From UHGV virus genome UHGV-0333071: a stretch of 24,121 bases of DNA, one strand, 5' to 3'. The notes beneath the pieces are model-generated. The model saw only the letters and a list, made by a program, of their open reading frames with translations. It ran no database searches and had not been told where the DNA came from. This DNA is from a virus. Positions 11,953-23,193 of this stretch are shown here, one piece after another. Position 1 is the first letter of the stretch, and each line of letters starts with the position of its first letter. The translations under genes were made by a program, and so were the position numbers.

Positions 11953-13764
11953 ATGGCTAAATATTCCGATGAATTAAAAGAAGCGGCCCGCACGCTTTAT
12001 ATAAAAAGCTGGACGCCGAAAGATATTGCGCAGGAACTGAATATTCCACCGCGTACAATTTACCACTGGGCTGACGTCGGGAAGTGGGCATCACTGCTGC
12101 CTGTTGAATCGGTGGAAAATGTCATCGCCCGCCGTATCGACCAGCTCTCCCGCCGCGAGAAAAAAACAGCGCTGGAACTGGAAGAACTGCGCGATCTGAT
12201 TGCTCACCATGTGAAACTCATGGCGCAGCGCAGCAAGCACGCCGAAAAGCTGGCAGAAATTCAGGCTCAGAAAGCGGCTTATGATGGTGAAGGGTACTGC
12301 CTCAGCAGCGCAGGCGGGGAACCAGGGGAAAGAAAGCGCCGGTATAAGAAAAACGACGTTTCCGGTATTACAGCGGAAATGCTCGACACCTGGGCGCGGG
12401 AACATCTCTTCGAGTACCAGCTGCACTGCCGCGAACATAAAGGCGAAGACTGGCGCTTCATTCTGAAAAGCCGACAGGTCGGCATGACCTATTATTTCGC
12501 CTGGGAGGCATTCGAAGATGCTGTCATTACCGGTGATAACCAGGTCTTTTTCTCTGCAAGCCGCTCCCAGTCTGAAATCTTCCGTGAATACATCGTCCAG
12601 ATCGCCCAGAACCATTTCGGCGTGACGCTGACGGGTAAAAATATCCGCCTCAGCAACGGCGCAATACTGCGCTTTTTGTCCACGAACGCCAGCACCGCGC
12701 AGGGCTTTAACGGCCACCTGTATGGCGATGAGGTTTTCTGGATCCCGAAATTCACGCGCCTGCACGAAGTTGCCAGCGCAATGGCGACGCATAACAAATA
12801 CCGGACGACCTACTTTTCGACGCCCAGCGCGAAAACGCACCAGGCTTACCCGGTCTGGACTGGCGAAGCCTGGCGCGGGGACGACCCGAAACGCAAAGGT
12901 GTGGCGTTCCCGACAGAAAGCGAAATGCGCCAGGGTATTCTCTGCCCGGACCAGATCTGGCGCTACATCATCACGATGGAAGACGCTATCGAAGGTGGCC
13001 TCGGTGCGCTTGTCGATATTGAACGGCTGCGCAACAAATACAGCCCGACCGCGTTCGCCATGCTCTACATGTGCCAGTTCGTTGACAGTAAGGACGCGGT
13101 TTTCAAGTTCTCCGCGCTTGTCGGCTGTGAAGTGGACCGGGCCACATGGGGCGACTTTGATCTGACAGCTGCGCGGCCCTTCGGCAATCGCGAAGTATGG
13201 GCAGGCTTTGACCCGTCACGATCCGGCGACAACTCCACCTTTGTGTTAATCGCGCCCCCCATAGAGGACGGCGAGCGCTTCCGCGTGCTGGCCGTCTGGC
13301 AATGGCAGGGCTTTAACTTCAGCTGGCAGGCCGACCAGATAAAGCAGCTTATGCGCCGCTTTAACATCACTTACATCGGGATCGATACAACCGGCATAGG
13401 TAAGGGCGTTTATGACCTGGTCAGCAAGTTTGCACCTCGCGAAGCCACACCCATTCTTTACAGCGTCGAAAGCAAAAACCGCCTGGTAATGAAGATGATC
13501 GACGTTGTCGAGCGTAAACGCATCGAATGGGCAAAAGACGCCGTAGACGAAACGAACAAAGAGCGCGTCGAAATTCCGGCCAGCTTTATGGCTATCCGGC
13601 GCACGACAACCAACAGCGGCAACGCGCTGACGTTTGTTGCCGAACGTTCAGACGCGACCGGCCATGCAGATGTTTTCTTCGCTATCTCGCACGCCGTAAT
13701 TAACGAACCTATCGATCACGAATATGACCGCCCATCGGGCTGGTACTTTGGGAAAGCAGCATGA
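11953..13764 (+). CDS. P: Terminase large (ATPase) subunit, gpP-like
   Basis: 603-aa ORF, divergent from O and followed by the portal gene with 4-nt overlap. Confidence 0.85.
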   Translation: MAKYSDELKEAARTLYIKSWTPKDIAQELNIPPRTIYHWADVGKWASLLPVESVENVIARRIDQLSRREKKTALELEELRDLIAHHVKLMAQRSKHAEKLAEIQAQKAAYDGEGYCLSSAGGEPGERKRRYKKNDVSGITAEMLDTWAREHLFEYQLHCREHKGEDWRFILKSRQVGMTYYFAWEAFEDAVITGDNQVFFSASRSQSEIFREYIVQIAQNHFGVTLTGKNIRLSNGAILRFLSTNASTAQGFNGHLYGDEVFWIPKFTRLHEVASAMATHNKYRTTYFSTPSAKTHQAYPVWTGEAWRGDDPKRKGVAFPTESEMRQGILCPDQIWRYIITMEDAIEGGLGALVDIERLRNKYSPTAFAMLYMCQFVDSKDAVFKFSALVGCEVDRATWGDFDLTAARPFGNREVWAGFDPSRSGDNSTFVLIAPPIEDGERFRVLAVWQWQGFNFSWQADQIKQLMRRFNITYIGIDTTGIGKGVYDLVSKFAPREATPILYSVESKNRLVMKMIDVVERKRIEWAKDAVDETNKERVEIPASFMAIRRTTTNSGNALTFVAERSDATGHADVFFAISHAVINEPIDHEYDRPSGWYFGKAA

Positions 13765-14822
13765 CAAAGAAACAGCGTAATAATAAAAAATTCGGGTCCA
13801 TGACCGGCAGCAGGGTTGAAACCTTCACGCCAGGGCGCGGAAGCGTGATCACATTTGGCGAACCAGAACCCATCCTGACGACCGGCACGGATTATCACAA
13901 TATCTGGTATGACAATGAGTATGACCACTGGCGACTTCCGATTGATCGCCTGGCGCTGGCCCAGTTGCCGAACCTTAACGGCCAGCATGGTGGCGTACTG
14001 TATGCGCGGCGCAATATGGTTGCCGGTGGCTACATCGGCGGCGGCCTGACGCCGGACCAGGTCGAACAGGCTGTCTTTGATTACCTGCTGTTTGGTGACG
14101 TCGCTATCCTGAAAATTCGTAACGTATTCGGGGAAGTGATCGACCTGCTGCCGTTGCCGTCGCTGTATCTGCGCTGCCGGAAAGACGGCTCTTTTGCTGT
14201 TCTGCAGGAAGGGCCAGCGCTTATCTATGACCCGGAAGACATCGTATTCTTTAAAATGTACGACCCGCGCCAGCAAGTGTATGGCCTGCCTGACTATATC
14301 GGCGGCATCCATTCGGTGTTACTCAACAGTGAGGCAACCATCTTCCGACGCCGTTACTACAATAACGGGGCGCACATGGGCTTTATTCTCTATACCAGCG
14401 ATCCAAATCTGACGCTGGAAATGGAAAACGAAATCAAAGAGAAGATCGCCCAGTCCAAAGGGCTGGGTAACTTCCGCAATATGTTTATCAACATCCCGAA
14501 GGGCGACCCGGAAGGGGTTAAAATCATGCCAGTGGGCGAAGTCAGCGCAAAGGATGAATTCGCCAATATCAAAGGGATCACCGCACAGGATATCTTTACC
14601 GCCCACCGTTTCCCCGCAGGCCTGGCAGGTATCATCCCGACCAACGGCGCGGTAATGGGCAACCCTGAAACCGCCCGCACAACCTATCGCAAGGATGAAG
14701 TTATCCCCTTGCAGCGCAAGCTAATGAACGGCGTCAACAATGACCCGGAGATCCCCGCACACTTGCACCTGGTTTTTGACGTGGATATCCCGGCAATTAC
14801 CACCGAAAAGGGCGAAAAATGA
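13761..14822 (+). CDS. Q: Portal protein, gpQ-like
   Basis: 353-aa ORF downstream of P; P2-type P-then-Q order, size as P2 gpQ. Confidence 0.85.
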   Translation: MTKKQRNNKKFGSMTGSRVETFTPGRGSVITFGEPEPILTTGTDYHNIWYDNEYDHWRLPIDRLALAQLPNLNGQHGGVLYARRNMVAGGYIGGGLTPDQVEQAVFDYLLFGDVAILKIRNVFGEVIDLLPLPSLYLRCRKDGSFAVLQEGPALIYDPEDIVFFKMYDPRQQVYGLPDYIGGIHSVLLNSEATIFRRRYYNNGAHMGFILYTSDPNLTLEMENEIKEKIAQSKGLGNFRNMFINIPKGDPEGVKIMPVGEVSAKDEFANIKGITAQDIFTAHRFPAGLAGIIPTNGAVMGNPETARTTYRKDEVIPLQRKLMNGVNNDPEIPAHLHLVFDVDIPAITTEKGEK

Positions 14823-15145
14823 GCGCAGTTAAGTTAAAATCATCCCCATTGTTAGCAATGGCGTGCGGGATGGTGAACATGCGAGTTTTTAAAATTAAAT
14901 GCCCAGAATGCGGCTCACCGGCCATCATTCGTAAATCTGACTGGAAAGACAAAAAACTGGCTGATTTATACTGCGCCTGCACGGAAGTTGAATGCGGCCA
15001 CACCTTTGTTTTTAACGCCCAGTTTTCACATACCCTTAGCCCCAGCGGGCTGACTGGCAACAAGCTGGTTAAATTCCTGATTGACCGGCTCAAGCCGGAA
15101 GAAAAACAAATTGCTTTAGATTTGTTGAAAGGATTAAATGTATAA
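14819..15145 (+). CDS. ogr: Ogr/Delta-family zinc-finger late transcription activator
   Basis: Exact C-x2-C-x22-C-x4-C spacing (CPEC...22 aa...C-TEVE-C), the Ogr/Delta/186-B signature. Start is either 14819 (ATGA overlap with the Q stop) or the internal ATG at 14879 (MRVFKIKCPECG..). Confidence 0.8.
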   Translation: MSAVKLKSSPLLAMACGMVNMRVFKIKCPECGSPAIIRKSDWKDKKLADLYCACTEVECGHTFVFNAQFSHTLSPSGLTGNKLVKFLIDRLKPEEKQIALDLLKGLNV

Positions 15146-15171
15146 AAAGCTCCCCAGTTGGAGAGCTTTTT
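15144..15171. terminator. Bidirectional intrinsic terminator
   Basis: aaaaagctcccca / tggagagcttttt form an inverted repeat (about 11-13 bp stem, one mismatch) flanked by an A-run on one side and a T-run on the other, in the 33-bp gap between the convergent ogr-like and ATPase genes. Confidence 0.6.
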
Positions 15172-15178
15172 AAAATAG

Positions 15179-17467
15179 TTACACTGAGCCACTATATATA
15201 ATATTCAACGCCCTTGTGCAATATGCAATTAACTCCCCTGGGAATATAGGCTCATTTGCAGCATTAGCATTGGTATCATGATGAAATTTACCAGCATAGC
15301 TATTTATTTCATTTAACTCATTTGTAATTGACGAGGCATGGTGAAGAGGTGAACCAGGTTGTGACGCAACTATCGCCTGTACTATTTCACCAAACAACTT
15401 ACCTGATGGGATATGATTAGGGAATCGACGATGTAAATACCCCTCTAACAATGGACGAATTGCAGTAGCAACGTCTTTTTCATTATATGGTTCACCATTG
15501 ACATATCCACTTACTAATCGATGATTTTTATAATAAGCAGACTCGCATTCAATATCTAGATCAAGAGAAACAAGAGTACTAAACTGCCCATGCGTATGAA
15601 CAACTTTAATTAGAGACAAAAGATTCGGATCATTCAACTTCTTGATGAAGTCATCTCTTAACTTTTTAATAAAAAAAGCATCATGTGCTAAGATTATTAA
15701 CTGTTTGCAGTTATCACATATTTTTTTAAGTTCGTTTACTGTCTGTTGCTTTCTGTGTGTATCAAAACTACACATAGGGTCATCAATTAGTACAATTTTA
15801 TTAGTAAGATTTTGATCTTCAGATATGACAGCAATGAAAAATGCAAATGCAAGAGTGCGTTTGTCACCTTCGCTTAAACAGGTTTTGAACCCAGCATCTT
15901 CACCTTGTAATGTAATTCTATTTCCTCGAAGATTTAATGCATACTCGGTTCTAGGCTCTCCTGTGCCACGATAGTTATAGGTTACTTCTTCAATAGTAAA
16001 GGCTGCTCCAAACTTCTGAAGTAAAATATTAATCGATGATTCATATCGACCAAGAGTTGCCTGCATTATGGTATTAAGAGTGTTTTTTTTCGCTTCCTTT
16101 TCTGCTAAAGCCGCTGTTTCAACAGCTTTAGCAGCAGTATATTCATTAATCAAGTTAACTACAGCTGGAGAATATCGAGTCTTTATAGCATTGAGTCGAT
16201 TATTTTCTTCAGTCAATGTCTGAATATTAATATTTTCCAAGCTGGTTTTATAATCATCAATCTGGTTATTCAAAATGTCTAGTTGTTCATTAAACTCAGT
16301 AACACACTGAACCATTTTATCAATAATTGCCTGGCACTCACCTTCAAATTTTTGTTCTAACTTATCCAAAGGTGATGCAGTTTTTATTTTCACACAATCG
16401 GTTAATATTCCATCTAGTGAGGTTTTAAGCTCATCTAGCTTATTAATATCTAATGATGGTGTGTTTAGTGATAAGTATTCCCCCCAAGAAAGAATGTTTT
16501 CAGTAATGCTAATCTGCTCTTGGTTTTTTAATGGTATATTAAAGGATGACAATATGGCCGCTTTTTTGTTTTCTAATAAGCTTATCTCTTTAATGAAATT
16601 TCTATATTCTGTATTAAAGTATGTTTTATAAGCATCTATAAGACTAAGTCCTTCCACTGTTTGCGCGCAAAAAGGACAAGTATCTTCTTTTAAAAATTTC
16701 TGCCCATCACTTATCCATTTTTGAGCACCATCATCAGATAAATGCTGGAAATGTGCATCAACTACAGAACTTGCATTCTCATCAATTTTATCAACAGTTG
16801 TATACATTACATTAAAGAAATTCTGTATATCCACTGTGAATTCAGTCAGCTTTTTAAGTTTGTTTTTATTTTTAATAACACTAATTCTTTGGGACTTACC
16901 TTGTTCCACTAAGTTAGCAGCGATCAAATCATCAATATTATCAATACTTCTCAGGCGTATATATTGAGATAGGGTATAATGACCACGATAACCAGTTAAT
17001 CTTGCCTCTACATTTCTTTTTGCAGTAGTACAATTTGTGGCATGTTGACTAGCTGCATCAAACTCTATCTTTGCAGCAACAGCCGACTGACCTAACGCAA
17101 AACTTAGGAGGTTTTTTCTTTGCCCTGGTGTAATTTCACCTCCAGAATAAACATTCGTATCTATAAAATCCAAATCAAAAACATGAAAATCAGTAAACTT
17201 CCTATCCCATTGATTATTTTCAAACTTAGCTCTATTTCCTTGACTAAATTGCAGATCAATAAATTGATCTACACTAGAGTTAAATGTCTTTCTGCTCAAT
17301 AACACATTAGACGCTGAGTGTGTATAAGAACGCATTATTGATGCAAGAGTTGACTTCCCCCTTCCATTATCGCCATAAATTAATGATATTTTTTTGAATT
17401 GAATGGCTGCAGGACGGATGTCGTTAAAGAGACCAACACCAGTAATCTTATGAATTCTTTCTAACAT
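15179..17467 (-). CDS. Rad50/SMC-like ABC ATPase with CxxC zinc-hook coiled-coil and C-terminal nuclease-like domain (RloC-like anticodon-nuclease candidate); putative anti-phage defence protein
   Basis: 762-aa ORF in strongly AT-rich DNA. Walker A GDNGRGKST (aa 32-40), long coiled-coil insertion with CPFC at aa 264-267 (nt 16667-16678), ABC signature LSEGDKR (aa 531-537), Walker B IVLIDDP (aa 558-564), H-loop LAHD (aa 593-596), then about 150 aa containing R671-x3-E675 and HH709-710. AAGGA RBS 7 nt upstream. Confidence 0.6.
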   Translation of the reverse strand: MLERIHKITGVGLFNDIRPAAIQFKKISLIYGDNGRGKSTLASIMRSYTHSASNVLLSRKTFNSSVDQFIDLQFSQGNRAKFENNQWDRKFTDFHVFDLDFIDTNVYSGGEITPGQRKNLLSFALGQSAVAAKIEFDAASQHATNCTTAKRNVEARLTGYRGHYTLSQYIRLRSIDNIDDLIAANLVEQGKSQRISVIKNKNKLKKLTEFTVDIQNFFNVMYTTVDKIDENASSVVDAHFQHLSDDGAQKWISDGQKFLKEDTCPFCAQTVEGLSLIDAYKTYFNTEYRNFIKEISLLENKKAAILSSFNIPLKNQEQISITENILSWGEYLSLNTPSLDINKLDELKTSLDGILTDCVKIKTASPLDKLEQKFEGECQAIIDKMVQCVTEFNEQLDILNNQIDDYKTSLENINIQTLTEENNRLNAIKTRYSPAVVNLINEYTAAKAVETAALAEKEAKKNTLNTIMQATLGRYESSINILLQKFGAAFTIEEVTYNYRGTGEPRTEYALNLRGNRITLQGEDAGFKTCLSEGDKRTLAFAFFIAVISEDQNLTNKIVLIDDPMCSFDTHRKQQTVNELKKICDNCKQLIILAHDAFFIKKLRDDFIKKLNDPNLLSLIKVVHTHGQFSTLVSLDLDIECESAYYKNHRLVSGYVNGEPYNEKDVATAIRPLLEGYLHRRFPNHIPSGKLFGEIVQAIVASQPGSPLHHASSITNELNEINSYAGKFHHDTNANAANEPIFPGELIAYCTRALNIIYSGSV

Positions 17468-17635
17468 GATATATCCTTTAATGTCATGCGGTTTAGATTC
17501 GGTTGATAATCTACTTTTTTATAAAATCGCCTTCAACCCCAAATTAAGATTCCTCTTAAATCACAAATTTCATTGATCACTATCACATTTTTACGCCCTT
17601 GATTTTAATTCTGTAGTGAAATTAATTTGTAGCTA
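17468..17635 (-). promoter_or_regulatory. Promoter/leader region of the island ATPase gene (candidate -35 TTGAAG / 17-bp spacer / -10 TAGATT on minus strand)
   Basis: 168-bp AT-rich gap between the A stop and the ATPase start; hexamers at plus coordinates 17531-17536 and 17508-17513; RBS at about 17475-17479. Promoter call is by eye only. Confidence 0.3.
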
Positions 17636-20227
17636 TTAATTTCTCAACATCTTCCAGTATTCTCCAATAGGGTCGAAACGAAGTTTTGACGAAGCTACTC
17701 CATGCTCATCACGCAGCCGCTCCCATAATTTATTCACCGTCCGTGACTCGTTGGGTAATTGACGCGTTATCAACTGGCCGCCAGCACTGGCCCGATAAAC
17801 TTTGCCGCTAATCTCCAGACGGCTCCCCATTAACAGCGAAACGGCCTGAATCTCTGAAATCTCAACCAAACACAACGCCGCATCAGCCAGCAGACTGGCA
17901 ACCGCAGGGGCAAGAACTGCCCGCTTGGCTTTTTCAGCCGCCGATCTGGCCTCGGTTTTTTCCACGGCAGAACGCCAGGCGGTATCTAATTCGCTTCCTA
18001 GCTCGTAAGGCGATCCGCTTTTCTGCCTTTTGAATGGTGTTTCACGTAGTCGCCGCATCAATTTGCGCCGCGTTGACTGGTCCATATTTTCAAAATCGAC
18101 GATTTCTTCTTCTGACTCTTCTGTCATACCCTCCACATCAGGCGAAAAATTGGTGATTTTTTCGGCTTCCGTAGAGTTATTGACAGAACTCCAAGCGTCG
18201 CCGGTTGGCGACGGCAAAAGATCAACCCCCAAACCGGGGCCGTTTTGGGCCTCGGTGTTAGCTTTGTATTTGGCGCGGATTTTCCACTTAACCAGACGAG
18301 TGCAAATACGGGAGGCATCACCCAGACGCGGCGACCAGACCCCGAAAACCTTTTCGGGGATCTCACAATAAGCATTCATTTCATCAGCTGGCTGATAGGC
18401 CAGACGGACGACATAGTTTTCACGCGGGATCAAAACACCACCCTGGCGGATGATGTAGGTAGCAAAGCACCCGACATCGGCAGCGGCGCAAACCGCATCC
18501 ATTGCAGGATCCACAAGCAACGGCGCACCGCGCTTGAAGGTATTGTCAATTTTCTGGCGGGTCGTGATCTGATTGCTCAGTTTGCGCAGCTCGCGGTAAA
18601 CCGATATGGGCGGCTGTCCGATGGGCTGAAACTGGCGGATGCGGTGGAGTGACGCCCAGGCCATTGCATATTTGGCTGTTTCATTCAGCGGCTTGCCGCT
18701 TTCGTCGTCCAGTTCACCGGCCAGCGCGTGACCGTCGATATTCTTCGAAATGTATTTGGCGATATACGCCGTTGCTGACCCTTTCCGTGGGTCCATTTTT
18801 TTTGACTTGAAACGAGCACCGGTATTGCGGCCCAGCTCGTCGCGGTCTTCCGCAATGAAGTAGGCGCGAAGGATCGCAACCGTGGCTTTAACCTGCTCTT
18901 GTGGCATAAATAGCAACGCGTGCCAGTGTGGCGTCCCATCGTGATGCGGTTCGGCGACGCGGAAGCCATAAGGGCGCAAATCTTCGCGTTTCAGTTTGGC
19001 GGTTGCCCGGTTCCATACACGGCATAAATAGCGCTGCGCCTGGGCGACGGTGGAATGATTCCATTTGGCGTTATGGTGGCCGGACGCAATATTGCTGTGA
19101 TATTTCGACGGGCAAGTAATGGTCAGGAAGATGCCAACATCGCCGCGACTTTGGGCGACAAGTTCAACCCCAGCCATTCGGGCCATAAGCTCATGGCGAC
19201 GAATAGCCGGGTTAGACGTGGATTTATTAATCATTTCCTCAAGCGACGAAACGTTGCCGTCTTCGTCTACCAGTTCATGACTTTTGAAAAAATCCCGGTT
19301 CTTACGGCGCTGTTCCTGCCACTCGATCAGGCTGGAAGCGCTAACGTAGACGTGCGCTTTTTTATTTACCGCGCCAACAGCACGCAGCTGGTTCTCGCGC
19401 CAGTCACAACGCAAGCGCCAGATTTTGCGCCCCCACCAGTCAGGTGAAGCCATACGCAAAATGGCCGTGCATATGCGCTCGCGTTCCCACGGCGCATACC
19501 ATGCAGGCGGCACAATACGAAGCGCCAGCATTTCGCGGCCCAGGTGGCAATAAAGCCAGTCCAGTTCTTCGACGTTCATGTCGGAAACATTCCGCCCCAG
19601 GGCTTCGCATTCCGTCCCAAGCATTTCAGCCATGCGGCTGGCGATCTCATTAGCGGCGCTTAGTGCCTCCCGCTTTGTGAAATCAGCCAGTCGTTGCCAG
19701 CGCCCGAACCAGTACGCGGCCAGTTCGCCGGTGAGATCAGGCGAAACACCTTGCCTTGTGCGCACAACATCAAGACGCAGCAATGATTTTTTCACGGTCC
19801 CCATAAGAAAATCATTGGTGTGTCTGGCTTCACGGTTGGCCCGTAACCATTCAATTTTTTTGCGCCAGACTTCACGAATGAAGAACGGCTCTGATAATAA
19901 ACGCGCTTCGACACCTTCCGACGTATTGGCCCAGGCTGCCGCCGTAGCTTTGGCGGCTTCCATTTCCTGCCGGATTATATTTTGATGGACGGCCAGTGGC
20001 AGGCCGCACGGTTCGTACCTGTCCAGCGCCTGGATAAGCGCGTTACGGTCGCGAACATCGTCGGGGTTGTAACCGGCGCGTTTGAAGATGTGATCGATGT
20101 GTTTTTTTACGGCAGGATGATGCGCCACCGCCCCGGCAAGCGGGGCGATTTTTTTCGGTTCGTAGGTGTACAGGCCAACAGCTGGGCGCGGCGCGTTCCA
20201 GGACCATGCAAAAGCGGCGTCAGACAT
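17636..20227 (-). CDS. A: Replication initiation endonuclease, P2 gpA family
   Basis: N-terminus ..AFAWSWNAPRPAVG.. resembles P2 gpA (..AYAWNAPREAVG..) as recalled. Preferred start is the ATG at 20227 (GAGG RBS); the ORF track uses GTG at 20248. Confidence 0.85.
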   Translation of the reverse strand: MSDAAFAWSWNAPRPAVGLYTYEPKKIAPLAGAVAHHPAVKKHIDHIFKRAGYNPDDVRDRNALIQALDRYEPCGLPLAVHQNIIRQEMEAAKATAAAWANTSEGVEARLLSEPFFIREVWRKKIEWLRANREARHTNDFLMGTVKKSLLRLDVVRTRQGVSPDLTGELAAYWFGRWQRLADFTKREALSAANEIASRMAEMLGTECEALGRNVSDMNVEELDWLYCHLGREMLALRIVPPAWYAPWERERICTAILRMASPDWWGRKIWRLRCDWRENQLRAVGAVNKKAHVYVSASSLIEWQEQRRKNRDFFKSHELVDEDGNVSSLEEMINKSTSNPAIRRHELMARMAGVELVAQSRGDVGIFLTITCPSKYHSNIASGHHNAKWNHSTVAQAQRYLCRVWNRATAKLKREDLRPYGFRVAEPHHDGTPHWHALLFMPQEQVKATVAILRAYFIAEDRDELGRNTGARFKSKKMDPRKGSATAYIAKYISKNIDGHALAGELDDESGKPLNETAKYAMAWASLHRIRQFQPIGQPPISVYRELRKLSNQITTRQKIDNTFKRGAPLLVDPAMDAVCAAADVGCFATYIIRQGGVLIPRENYVVRLAYQPADEMNAYCEIPEKVFGVWSPRLGDASRICTRLVKWKIRAKYKANTEAQNGPGLGVDLLPSPTGDAWSSVNNSTEAEKITNFSPDVEGMTEESEEEIVDFENMDQSTRRKLMRRLRETPFKRQKSGSPYELGSELDTAWRSAVEKTEARSAAEKAKRAVLAPAVASLLADAALCLVEISEIQAVSLLMGSRLEISGKVYRASAGGQLITRQLPNESRTVNKLWERLRDEHGVASSKLRFDPIGEYWKMLRN

Positions 20228-20241
20228 GGGATGCCTCGCTA

Positions 20242-21246
20242 TTACCACGTTTCCGGGTTATCGGACGGCTCGCAAATATCGCAGTTGCCTCGACAATCAA
20301 ACGACCATCCCTCCTCACATGCGGCGATACCTGGGCAACATTTCGCACAGTGACCACCTTCATAGCGCCCGCAGCCATCACAGACAGGCAGCACGCCGAT
20401 TACTTCACTGGCGGCCCCTCGGGTAATGGCGTTCGCGCTGACAGAACGGTTAACGCTGATTTCCTGGAAGTTGAAAGCGCGATAAATCTCGCGGGTAGCT
20501 GGGGTGTCGCTATTTGACAGGATCACCGGCGAACCAGTAAGGCGGTTAGTATCCAGCAGGGCGGCAGCTAACTGGCGATGCTCTTTAATGCCAAACGGGG
20601 CAGTGTGGTATTGGGTGAAATTAGCGGTGTCGCTTGCTGGCAGGTATGGCGGATCGCAGTAGATAACCGCGTCACTACCAATCATGATTTTTAACGTGCT
20701 CTGGAAATCGCAGCACACGAAAATAGCTTTCGTGTCGTTAGCTTTTTCAGAGAATAAACGGATCTGTTCTTCCGGGAAATAAGGCGGGGTTTTGTGTCGC
20801 CCAAAGGGAACGTTATATCCACCCTGTTGGTTGTAGCGTACTACGCCGTTATATCCGTGACGGTTCAGGTAAAGAAATTGTGCTGCACGAAGAATCTTGC
20901 CCGTGTCCGGTCCGTCCTCAAACACATTGCGCGATGACAGAAGGTCATGGGCGCGAGCGTTGAAATCGTCGCGGATCCACTTATAGCCGTCTTTATCGCC
21001 GTACACTTTAAACAGCGGGCGAGCAGCGTCTATCACCGCATCAGGCCAGCGGGTTATCTGGCGATACAGGTTAATTAAATCTGGGTTGATATCACTCAGG
21101 ATATAACGGCGATATTCAGTATTGAGGAAAACAGAAGCACCGCCGACAAACGGTTCCACCAGGCAATCGGCTTTTGGCAGAATCGGCAGCAAATCAGGCA
21201 TAACGCGGCCTTTACCACCGGGCCATTTAACGAGAGATCGAATCAT
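20242..21246 (-). CDS. dam: DNA adenine methyltransferase (Dam family, GATC-type) with Cys-rich C-terminal extension
   Basis: Near-colinear similarity to E. coli Dam as recalled (..KWPGGKG.., ..CLVEPFVGGASVFLNT.., ..FLYLNRHGYNGVVRYN.., ..VIYCDPPY..). Extra C-terminal tail of about 50 aa with ten cysteines. Confidence 0.85.
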   Translation of the reverse strand: MIRSLVKWPGGKGRVMPDLLPILPKADCLVEPFVGGASVFLNTEYRRYILSDINPDLINLYRQITRWPDAVIDAARPLFKVYGDKDGYKWIRDDFNARAHDLLSSRNVFEDGPDTGKILRAAQFLYLNRHGYNGVVRYNQQGGYNVPFGRHKTPPYFPEEQIRLFSEKANDTKAIFVCCDFQSTLKIMIGSDAVIYCDPPYLPASDTANFTQYHTAPFGIKEHRQLAAALLDTNRLTGSPVILSNSDTPATREIYRAFNFQEISVNRSVSANAITRGAASEVIGVLPVCDGCGRYEGGHCAKCCPGIAACEEGWSFDCRGNCDICEPSDNPETW

Positions 21247-21943: not shown

Positions 21944-22081
21944 GTTGATCTCCGTCATATTCAAAAAGTGCCGGGATACAACCCCACGCCCGGCGCGTGT
22001 TTCCTGTGATAACATCGCTATGCCTGTGAAACTTTGAGAGGTGAATCAGGCATAACAATCACCAACACAGAAGGAGTTGTA

Positions 22082-22543
22082 ATGAAATTCAATGTTTTTT
22101 TAAAAGTAAACCATGGCGCACACTGGGTTCTCTCCTCCGGCTCACCTATTTTTGAAAGCACTTTATTTGAAACACGGCCAGAGGCTATTAATGACCTTGA
22201 AAAATTTGTAACCGGCATGGAATCACCAACATTTATTGACAATGACAATAGCGATAGCCCCTCCCCAGCAACAGTTATTTTCAAACAGATTGATTCCCGC
22301 TGGCATTGGACATTATTTTTTTCATTCAATGGAGTACGATCTAAAATCGCCGAAAGCTCAGAAAAAGGCTTTGACTCATTAGAACTTGCCAAACAAAAAG
22401 CCAAGATTTTCTGTAATTCCATTGTCGACGCTCCAATTCTTGACCAGTTTGATATTGCCATTCCTGGCCTAGGCTTCACAAAATCCTTTGAACATGCACA
22501 TAACATCGGCGACATTCACCCATCTAGTAAATGGGTAAAGTAA
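22082..22543 (+). CDS. YegP/DUF1508-like tandem-domain protein (unknown function)
   Basis: Only plus-strand gene in the early region; AAGGAG RBS 6 nt before the ATG at 22082; AT-rich. Two roughly 50-aa segments (KFNVFLKVNHGAHWVLSSGSPIFESTLFETRPEAINDLEKF and WHWTLFFSFNGVRSKIAESSEKGFDSLELAKQKAKIF) follow the YegP repeat pattern as recalled. Confidence 0.45.
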   Translation: MKFNVFLKVNHGAHWVLSSGSPIFESTLFETRPEAINDLEKFVTGMESPTFIDNDNSDSPSPATVIFKQIDSRWHWTLFFSFNGVRSKIAESSEKGFDSLELAKQKAKIFCNSIVDAPILDQFDIAIPGLGFTKSFEHAHNIGDIHPSSKWVK

Positions 22544-22547
22544 GCAG

Positions 22548-22895
22548 TCATTGTGGCGTTACAATTTTTCTTGTGCGGGGTGGAACATCTCGCACGGTTT
22601 CATCATCAACAATCAATTCATAAATTTGAATGCTGTTATCAGATTTTGATATTTCATCAAATACCTGAAAAAGAAAACTCATGAATTGCTCATAAGTAAC
22701 AGTAGGATCAATAAACCCTCCCGCAACACATAACAAAGGTGTTAGTCCTGAGTTATTCACTACTGAGATACTATTCAACTGATCAAGACGAAAAAAATAA
22801 TTACCGGCCGGTGTTCTTTTATCATTTATATGAATAAACACATTTGATAATGCTATATGACTATCTGAGAGTTTAAAGATTTTTGCCGTGTCCAT
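22548..22895 (-). CDS. Hypothetical protein (115 aa), AT-rich cargo gene downstream of cox
   Basis: A long ORF in AT-rich DNA is unlikely by chance. Sits 22 nt downstream of the cox stop; tail-to-tail with the YegP-like gene with a 4-nt gap. RBS is weak. Confidence 0.45.
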   Translation of the reverse strand: MDTAKIFKLSDSHIALSNVFIHINDKRTPAGNYFFRLDQLNSISVVNNSGLTPLLCVAGGFIDPTVTYEQFMSFLFQVFDEISKSDNSIQIYELIVDDETVRDVPPRTRKIVTPQ

Positions 22896-22917
22896 TTTAT
22901 TCAGCCCTGTAAGTTGC

Positions 22918-23193
22918 TTATGATGGATTGCCCAGACCCAACCACATTAACCACCCTTCCCTAATTTCCTTCGGGCGGCTCTCATACGCCATTTTCATTC
23001 CGTTGTTCCAGGCTGGGAGGTAGACCCAGTACTCACCTGCCCGCCCGGAAGTTGATTGCGGATCGGTCATCTCAACTACGGGTAGCTTTCCTTTTTCAAT
23101 CATTCCCCTTACTGCTGCCGGTGTTTTGCCGATCAGTTTTGCAAACTCCTGGTACGGGACAGCATCACTAATACTGACAACTTGTTTGCTCAT
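22918..23193 (-). CDS. cox: Cox (excisionase / repressor of the lysogenic promoter)
   Basis: 91 aa, near-identical along its length to P2 Cox as recalled (..AVPYQEFAKLIGK..GKLPVVEMTDPQS..GRAGEYWVYLPAWNNG..ESRPKEIREGWLMWLGLG..). Confidence 0.9.
   Translation of the reverse strand: MSKQVVSISDAVPYQEFAKLIGKTPAAVRGMIEKGKLPVVEMTDPQSTSGRAGEYWVYLPAWNNGMKMAYESRPKEIREGWLMWLGLGNPS

Follow-up and report, generated by a model that had tools for sequence, protein, structure and literature searches.

The analysis concerns the virus genome UHGV-0333071, 24,121 nucleotides (nt) in length and referred to as a whole as the window, and the AT-rich block lying in it between the replication gene A and the late-gene activator gene ogr, beside which stands the portal gene Q (the A-Q slot). 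The block is filled by one open reading frame (ORF) on the minus strand, here called the cargo gene, the product of which is predicted to be an anticodon nuclease of the RloC family. The coordinates of the features are collected in Table 1. The guanine-cytosine (GC) content of positions 15104-17699 was 0.337, compared with 0.538 in the remaining window, and none of the 328 same-length windows taken elsewhere fell below 0.441 (mean 0.546, standard deviation 0.035), the block lying about 6 standard deviations below the others. In the sliding-window plot, a trough of 0.30-0.40 was observed at about 15000-17600, whereas the genes on either side gave 0.50-0.59, so that the sharp drop claimed in an earlier note on this DNA was borne out. 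The GC content at third codon positions was 0.24 in the cargo ORF versus 0.58-0.65 in A, Q and P.

The cargo protein matched AAA_13 in Pfam (1.9e-38), and its top PADLOC match was the candidate defence family PDC-S06 (3e-76, residues 1-689). The NCBIfam search gave generic ABC matches below threshold only, and the sequence search of PDB resulted in weak generic matches to the ABC/Rad50 signature-Walker B region, none of them to a structure of RloC or PrrC. A search of 5.8 billion proteins placed the protein in a tight family of about 760 amino acids (aa), several members of which were labelled 'wobble nucleotide-excising tRNase' (JGI, UniRef). Since these labels are automated, the features by which the discoverers defined RloC, namely the ABC motifs, a coiled-coil/CXXC zinc-hook insert and an Arg-X3-Glu-X36-52-His triad (PMC2610378), were checked one by one. 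The conservation of the motifs was determined with 64-117 homologs with identities down to 36%.

All the ABC motifs expected of RloC were found in the cargo protein. In the Walker A motif, N34, G35, G37, K38, S39 and T40 were invariant in 64 homologs and D33 nearly so, while G32 was not conserved. The signature-like LSEGDKRT aligned with the signature region of Rad50 and EcfA in the PDB matches. The AlphaFold2 (AF2) model built from the family alignment (mean predicted local distance difference test score 84.6) consisted of a split ABC head, an insert at residues 127-485 and a helical C-terminal domain, and with Foldseek the full model matched SMC/Rad50 heads with coiled coils (E-values from 3e-10 to 1e-5). 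The CPFC motif sits in the sole low-confidence/disordered loop of the insert (residues 256-270), and each of the 12 CxxC variants in the family was followed by xQ. A coiled-coil insert with CxxC in its central loop, as in RloC, is thus present, with the CxxC as a candidate zinc hook.

The C-terminal domain was all-helical in the model and of the HEPN-type fold common with PrrC, as is also expected of RloC. Nine residues of the RPLLEGYLHRRFP block (R671, P672, L674, E675, G676, Y677, H679, R681 and P683) were invariant, and the distance from E675 to the putative catalytic histidine was 53 (H729) or 54 (H730) in 138 of the 138 family members. H685, in RRFPNH, as the histidine of a HEPN Rx4-6H motif and H709/H710 (spacing x33/34) were considered and rejected, as these histidines are not conserved.

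Over the full length, the cargo protein shares 40% identity with a 758-aa protein of Pseudoalteromonas tunicata D2 (EAR30186.1), the species, strain and length of which match entry 56 of the RloC ortholog table published in 2008, the entries of which were screened for the ABC, CXXC and triad motif sets. The key residues of G. kaustophilus RloC (GkaRloC), K44/C291/D572/R692/E696/H737, were collinear with K38/C264/D562/R671/E675/H730 of the cargo protein. Judged from sequence, the membership in the RloC family appears well supported, although indirectly.

Table 1. Features of the A-Q slot, the cargo gene and the flanking genes in the window.
Feature	Position	Strand	Basis
Exchangeable AT-rich cassette, variable module of the A-Q hotspot	15104-17720	none	Homology breaks, divergence from L005, GC content
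Cargo gene, 762 aa, RloC-family ABC-ATPase/HEPN, predicted anticodon nuclease	15179-17467	-	Pfam, PADLOC, homologs, AF2
Walker A/P-loop GDNGRGKST (aa 32-40)	17348-17374	-	Homolog conservation
Helical, coiled-coil-like insert splitting the ABC head (aa 127-485)	16013-17089	-	AF2 secondary structure
CPFC (aa 264-267), candidate zinc hook	16667-16678	-	C264 and C267 invariant, followed by invariant Q269
ABC signature-like LSEGDKRT (aa 531-538)	15854-15877	-	S532, E533, D535, R537, T538 invariant
Walker B/D-loop IVLIDDPMCSFD (aa 558-569)	15761-15796	-	D562, D563, P564, M565, C566, S567, D569 invariant
Switch (linchpin) histidine H595	15683-15685	-	Invariant H595-D596 past strand 589-594
C-terminal HEPN-fold domain, putative nuclease (aa 637-758)	15194-15559	-	
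RPLLEGYLHRRFP block with R671 and E675 of the putative triad	15419-15457	-	Homolog conservation
FHHDTN block with putative catalytic H729/H730	15269-15286	-	H729, H730 invariant
Bidirectional intrinsic terminator, common to ogr (+) and the cargo gene (-)	15143-15172	both	Hairpin and A/T runs
Upstream intergenic region of the cargo gene	17468-17635	-	Shine-Dalgarno and weak promoter candidate
Ogr/Delta-like zinc-finger late-gene activator, left flank	14819-15145	+	Pfam Ogr_Delta, 2.6e-17
Replication gene A, right flank	17636-20248	-	Pfam Phage_GPA, 1e-106
Portal Q	13761-14822	+	Pfam
Terminase P	11953-13764	+	Pfam
D12 Dam methylase	20242-21246	-	Pfam

The locus was compared with related genomes by megablast (query 13700-20300; matches covered 59% of the query). 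The matches were the Salmonella phages SW5, SW3 and SI7 (Irrigatiovirus, Peduoviridae) and 19 complete Escherichia coli genomes, the flanks of which were about 95% identical to those of the window. The slot of SW5 contains a 230-aa DNA methylase with a 66-aa ORF, a pair likewise found in SW3 and SI7, and in the 19 E. coli genomes the slot is occupied by a 925-aa protein without a Pfam or PADLOC match. Three unrelated cargos were thus detected behind flanks of about 95-97% identity. The A-Q interval of P2-like phages is a described defence hotspot, carrying old and tin in P2 (PMC9122126; PMC13586616), and as different cargo stands behind nearly identical flanks, the hotspot reading holds for this locus. 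The earlier note had proposed the same, and the comparison agreed with it in that the related phages carry different cargo rather than one gene with core-like conservation. The hotspot itself is not new, having been on record since 2022.

The 925-aa occupant (3209-5986, minus strand, in locus L002 from E. coli FDAARGOS_1059) belongs to phrog_10073/18005, of unknown function. The 19 genomes include O103:H2, O111:H2 and O45:H2 strains, and in strain 99E2750 the gene is split into ORFs of 610 and 312 aa. The protein is a candidate defence gene in prophages of pathogenic E. coli.

The homology to relatives with other cargo stopped at position 15103 and restarted at 17700 (SW5) or 17721 (E. coli); the variable unit therefore takes in the last 14 or so codons of ogr and about the last 28 codons of A. 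The earlier note had set the limits at 15144 and 17635, which located the island correctly and were slightly too narrow for the real cassette. The final 42 nt of ogr and the final 85 nt or so of A (17636-17720) lie within it. The GC content of the ogr tail was 0.21, compared with 0.60 in SW5, and the tail peptide was still homologous (EEKQIALDLLKGLNV vs EERQFALDLLNGQTA). In L005, an independent contig with the same phage lineage and cargo family, the flanks were 97-99% identical to those of the window, whereas the block 15104-17720, comprising both gene tails, the terminator and the intergenic region, was only 76-89% identical. For gene A, the identity was 76% in the tail and 98% in the remainder, with the tail peptides still alignable. 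Such divergence within nearly identical flanks indicates that the cassette is exchanged at the same boundaries even between divergent alleles.

Both junctions of the cassette were gradients rather than breaks, and the reading frames stay open across them. The tails of ogr and A are homologous as peptides, yet AT-rich (at least that of ogr) or more diverged; therefore, the cassette was most likely brought in from a related phage with a lower-GC background, through homologous recombination within both genes. The exact boundaries inside the 3' ends of the two genes show how the cassette of a P2-like phage is swapped, the same junctions serving both unrelated cargos and divergent alleles.

The hairpin 15143-15172 lies 6 nt past the stop codon of the cargo gene and immediately past that of ogr. 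The folding energies were -14.1 kcal/mol on the plus and -18.0 kcal/mol on the minus strand (z-scores of -5.4 and -5.9), none of 200 shuffled sequences folded as well, and U-tracts follow the hairpin on both strands. The fold, the U-runs and the position after both stop codons make it a credible bidirectional terminator, although a consensus terminator scan did not call the hairpin, owing to one bulge/mismatch. In SW5, a different hairpin occupies the equivalent position. Upstream of the cargo gene, a Shine-Dalgarno sequence AAGGA (17474-17478) was found 7 nt before the ATG, together with a sigma-70-like candidate on the minus strand, TTGAAG (17531-17536)-N17-TAGATT (17508-17513), which agreed with the consensus at 8 of 12 positions. 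About 100 nt next to the start, the candidate promoter included, were approximately 95% conserved in comparison with L005, and the coding sequence 88%. Of the signals proposed in the earlier note, the terminator (placed at 15144-15171) proved to be a real hairpin, while the gene's own promoter amounts to a weak candidate that the scanner did not report. The scan gave no terminator between A and the cargo gene; thus, read-through from the early operon or co-transcription is possible.

The ratio of nonsynonymous to synonymous substitution rates (dN/dS) between the two alleles was 0.12 overall, with values of 0.08-0.15 for the four domains taken singly, which indicates that the whole cargo protein is under purifying selection. 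The phage-borne copies of the gene were solitary: the same slot is occupied in L005, a 56%-identical gene stands in the gpA-gpQ slot of a Klebsiella P2-like prophage, and in E. coli lambdoid prophages (L008-L010) a 46%-identical gene lies alone in the nin-like replication-to-Q region, between a DUF977 gene and hok and upstream of rusA and the antiterminator gene Q. An unrelated type of temperate phage has thus captured the same RloC-like family. No conserved partner gene was found beside the prophage-borne copies.

In 80 species-representative genomes, the family was spread across many bacterial phyla and two archaea. Among these loci, only that of Providencia (52% identity) was a P2-type slot. 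On the chromosome of Providencia sp. PAZ2 (L030, 6419-13998), the RloC-family gene lies in the A-Q slot in the orientation opposite to that of the window, next to a 377-aa homolog of PD-T7-5 (5e-133), which suggests that the gene was acquired independently and that the slot holds two defence genes. Some of the non-phage loci had type III mod/res, type I hsdR, an SNF2 helicase or DUF2130 as neighbours, and the restriction linkage of these members is the context that gave the rlo genes their name. A DUF2130 protein (about 427 aa, 4.4e-82; e.g. 6658-7941 in L020) was encoded directly upstream of the RloC-family gene in 20 of the 80 loci, more commonly than any restriction-modification (R-M) gene. 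None of the phage-borne copies had it, and outside phages it may be a partner that has gone unrecognised.

Taken together, the block is read as an exchanged A-Q hotspot cassette of a P2/HP1-like phage that carries a stand-alone gene of the RloC family, by homology an anticodon nuclease acting in abortive infection, and a probability of about 0.72 is given to this reading. The ribonuclease (RNase) activity, the transfer RNA (tRNA) substrate, the trigger by DNA ends, the abortive-infection phenotype and the expression in the lysogen are all inferred for the cargo protein. In published work on RloC, the zinc hook silences the nuclease, DNA, especially with ends, activates it together with ATP hydrolysis, and the wobble nucleotide is removed by two successive cuts (PMC3458546; PMC3874168). 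Following the homology to the G. kaustophilus and A. baylyi enzymes, the prophage-encoded protein would be kept silent as a dimer locked by the zinc hook. Upon infection by another phage, the ATPase head would sense a DNA signal, either free DNA ends or the breakdown of host DNA, and the resulting ATP hydrolysis would release the HEPN nuclease. The released nuclease would cut tRNA anticodon loops and, as in RloC, excise the wobble nucleotide by two successive cuts, a lesion that phage tRNA-repair enzymes would hardly mend. Translation would then stop and the infection would be aborted, protecting the sibling lysogens. No tRNA genes were found in the window, and hence it encodes no decoy tRNAs. 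The authors of the RloC studies argued that its self-contained control lets rloC move without a partner (PMC3458546; PMC3874168), which fits a one-gene phage cassette.

Several observations weigh against this reading. The AAA_13 and PDC-S06 alignments end about 70-150 residues before the C-terminus. The Glu-His spacing of 53-54 exceeds the published X36-52 by 1-2 residues; the P. tunicata protein, having the same spacing, was nevertheless included in the original RloC table. Just upstream of H729/H730, where the consensus reads NxYAGxFHHDTN, the arginine that the canonical HEPN Rx4-6H motif would have is missing. The link to GkaRloC (YP_146738) and A. baylyi RloC (AbaRloC, ACIAD0152) consists of the ortholog table, COG-type labels and collinear motifs. 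The promoter scan of the minus strand upstream of the cargo gene gave nothing above threshold. No homolog was detected by tblastn in 50,697 deposited phage genomes and no match to the cassette by megablast in 5,426 complete E. coli genomes, from which it follows that the gene is rare in finished genomes and seldom carried by phages; the 90% cluster of the cargo protein includes draft/isolate genomes of E. coli, Citrobacter and Salmonella. In the RloC literature examined, protection against a phage was not demonstrated: no infecting phage is known for the A. baylyi RloC model (PMC3874168), and RloC was entered as 'not tested' in a recent defence screen. GkaRloC is promiscuous in vitro, with its natural substrate and trigger unsettled (PMC2610378; PMC3458546; PMC3874168).

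Some of the same evidence would also suit an abortive ABC-HEPN RNase of a sister lineage to RloC, such as the APECO1_4465 type, with another RNA target or a trigger other than DNA ends; messenger RNA, ribosomal RNA or other tRNA sites might be cut, and a phage protein might act as the signal. A prophage-borne ABC-HEPN group (APECO1_4465) was set apart from RloC proper in the HEPN paper, and the fixed 53-residue spacing, FHHDTN without the Rx4-6H arginine, the last part of the C-terminal domain left uncovered by the Pfam and PADLOC profiles, and the promiscuity and unsettled substrate and trigger of GkaRloC all point in this direction. However, the discoverers, having screened for the ABC, CXXC and triad motifs, counted a member of the family among the RloC orthologs; the CxxC, the R-x3-E and the histidine are all invariant, and the non-phage members show the restriction linkage of the original rlo genes. 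The sister-lineage explanation is therefore possible but unlikely.

A bolder proposal, regarded as quite unlikely, is that the enterobacterial phage-borne clade with the 53-residue spacing and FHHDTN lacking the HEPN arginine is a distinct ABC-HEPN sentinel and that the A-Q slot prefers convergent tRNA-amputating systems. Such a sentinel would sense the DNA ends of competing phages and ignore the replication and cos cutting of the resident phage, and an Old-like combination of an ABC-ATPase DNA-damage sensor with a two-cut tRNase would have been selected repeatedly for the slot. If true, this would provide the first tractable coliphage model for the natural trigger and antiviral role of RloC.

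The resemblance of the N-terminal two-thirds to SMC/Rad50 heads with a coiled coil, and the location of the gene directly downstream of A with no terminator between them, would also be expected of a Rad50/SbcC-like DNA-metabolism accessory serving the replication, recombination or packaging of the phage itself. A C-terminal HEPN domain with invariant putative catalytic residues is, in contrast, foreign to Rad50/SbcC; no Mre11/SbcD-like partner is adjacent, the slot is dispensable, being filled with unrelated cargo in phages of about 95% identity, and relatives of the gene occur in R-M loci, all of which makes such an accessory very improbable. A chimeric assembly or a decaying insertion without function, as the metagenomic origin of the window (ENA ERZ10621065 NODE_630) and the extreme contrast in composition could suggest, can hardly be credited as the explanation of the block, given that a separate, independent sample (SRR23754842, contig L005) shows the same arrangement, collinear over 12 kb, that the 90% cluster has isolate-genome members from E. 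coli, Citrobacter and Salmonella, that the ORF is intact with a dN/dS of 0.12, and that the junctions are graded inside reading frames that stay open.

As a cassette with an RloC-family gene, the block leaves current concepts unchanged and is a tidy but expected example. RloC is an established family listed among defence systems, and the 2008 table already has an ortholog from E. coli APEC O1 flanked by 'phage replication initiation' and 'capsid' genes. According to the finding, an RloC-type nuclease is carried by phages and prophages of E. coli, Citrobacter and Salmonella, and a coliphage-type carrier would open the trigger and the antiviral role of RloC to standard phage panels.

The host element is a P2/HP1-like temperate phage of Peduoviridae, near Irrigatiovirus SI7. 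On the 27-kb metagenome contig that holds the window, the gene order was int-cI-cox-...-fil-dam-A-[cargo]-ogr-Q-P-O-N-M-L-R-S..., and Pfam identified gpA, portal, terminase, gpO, gpN, gpM, gpL, gpR, Cox, Fil and integrase. The left arm of the slot is the ogr/delta gene, which stands fused behind Q, the end of which it overlaps; in P2 this gene lies near att. The P2 cos core was not matched anywhere in the window with up to 3 mismatches (<=3), and the comparison with relatives gave no conserved non-coding DNA between ogr and A (14819-15178, 17468-17635). The cos-adjacency of the P2 hotspot is thus not obviously applicable to this lineage, the cos site of which probably lies outside the A-Q slot, unlike in P2.

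Two further regions of the window were noticed. A second AT-rich patch (22000-23000, GC content 0.36-0.41), in the early operon between cox and fil, may be a second moron/accessory slot; it contains a 153-aa ORF on the strand opposite to its neighbours (22082-22543, plus strand; phrog_9021, unknown function) and a 115-aa ORF (22548-22895, minus strand; phrog_10410), both without a Pfam or PADLOC match. At the A-dam junction (20216-20396), the homology to relatives is briefly interrupted for a second time; SW5 carries an additional cytosine methyltransferase there, together with a small ORF. At 334 aa, the Dam protein of the window is longer than that of the E. coli prophages (296 aa); its C-terminal tail, CDGCGRYEGGHCAKCCPGIAACEEGWSFDCRGNCDICE, is rich in cysteine and overlaps the start of A.

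In comparison with the described A-Q hotspot of P2-like phages (Rousset et al. 2022; NAR 2026 gkag898), the present locus shares the gpA-gpQ location, the conserved flanks, the variable cargo, the AT-rich moron-like composition and the presence of defence genes among the occupants. It differs in having ogr/delta behind Q and neither a P2-type cos nor conserved non-coding DNA. PDC-S06, although the best profile match to the cargo protein, was defined computationally as a candidate class, has no described mechanism and provides a label rather than a function; the one discussion of it that was found regards it as a prediction.

With PrrC, the E. coli anticodon nuclease linked to EcoprrI, the cargo protein shares the ABC ATPase, the C-terminal HEPN domain with Arg-x3-Glu...His and the predicted abortive-infection logic. 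PrrC is about half as large and lacks the coiled-coil/zinc-hook insert, and its gene always stands in a type Ic hsd locus, which silences it (PMC2610378; PMC3874168). Instead of the approximately 400 aa, the missing insert and the hsd locus typical of PrrC, the cargo protein has 762 aa, an insert of 360 aa and ogr and gpA as neighbours; no PrrC model was among its PADLOC hits, and no hsd genes were found beside the gene. The likeness to RloC (GkaRloC, A. baylyi ACIAD0152; Davidov & Kaufmann 2008; Klaiman et al. 2012, 2013) extends to the ABC head motifs, the helical CxxC insert, the HEPN-type domain with Arg-x3-Glu...His, the collinear key residues, a similar length (762 vs 804 aa) and the lack of an obligatory R-M partner. 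The differences from RloC are the Glu-His spacing of 53-54 instead of 36-52, His-His in place of Ser-His, and the location in a P2-like phage hotspot.

The Old protein of P2, the type occupant of the slot, has been reported as an abortive tRNase composed of an ABC-ATPase and a TOPRIM domain, which nicks tRNA twice and responds to defects in DNA or to DNA ends (bioRxiv 10.64898/2026.07.10.737580). Searches of the cargo protein with the OLD-family models of PADLOC and Pfam gave nothing beyond generic ABC similarity, with weak AriA and AbiLi matches only. In place of the TOPRIM domain that accompanies the ABC ATPase in the OLD family, the cargo protein has an all-helical HEPN domain as its effector, and its ATPase carries a Rad50-like coiled-coil/CxxC insert. 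Both proteins occupy the same A-Q slot and are encoded by a single gene in which an ABC-ATPase sensor is fused to a nuclease, as predicted here for the cargo. The cargo protein may accordingly be viewed as a functional analogue of P2 Old and not as a homologue of its effector, and the parallel between it and a reported ABC-ATPase-coupled tRNase at the same locus makes a useful comparison.

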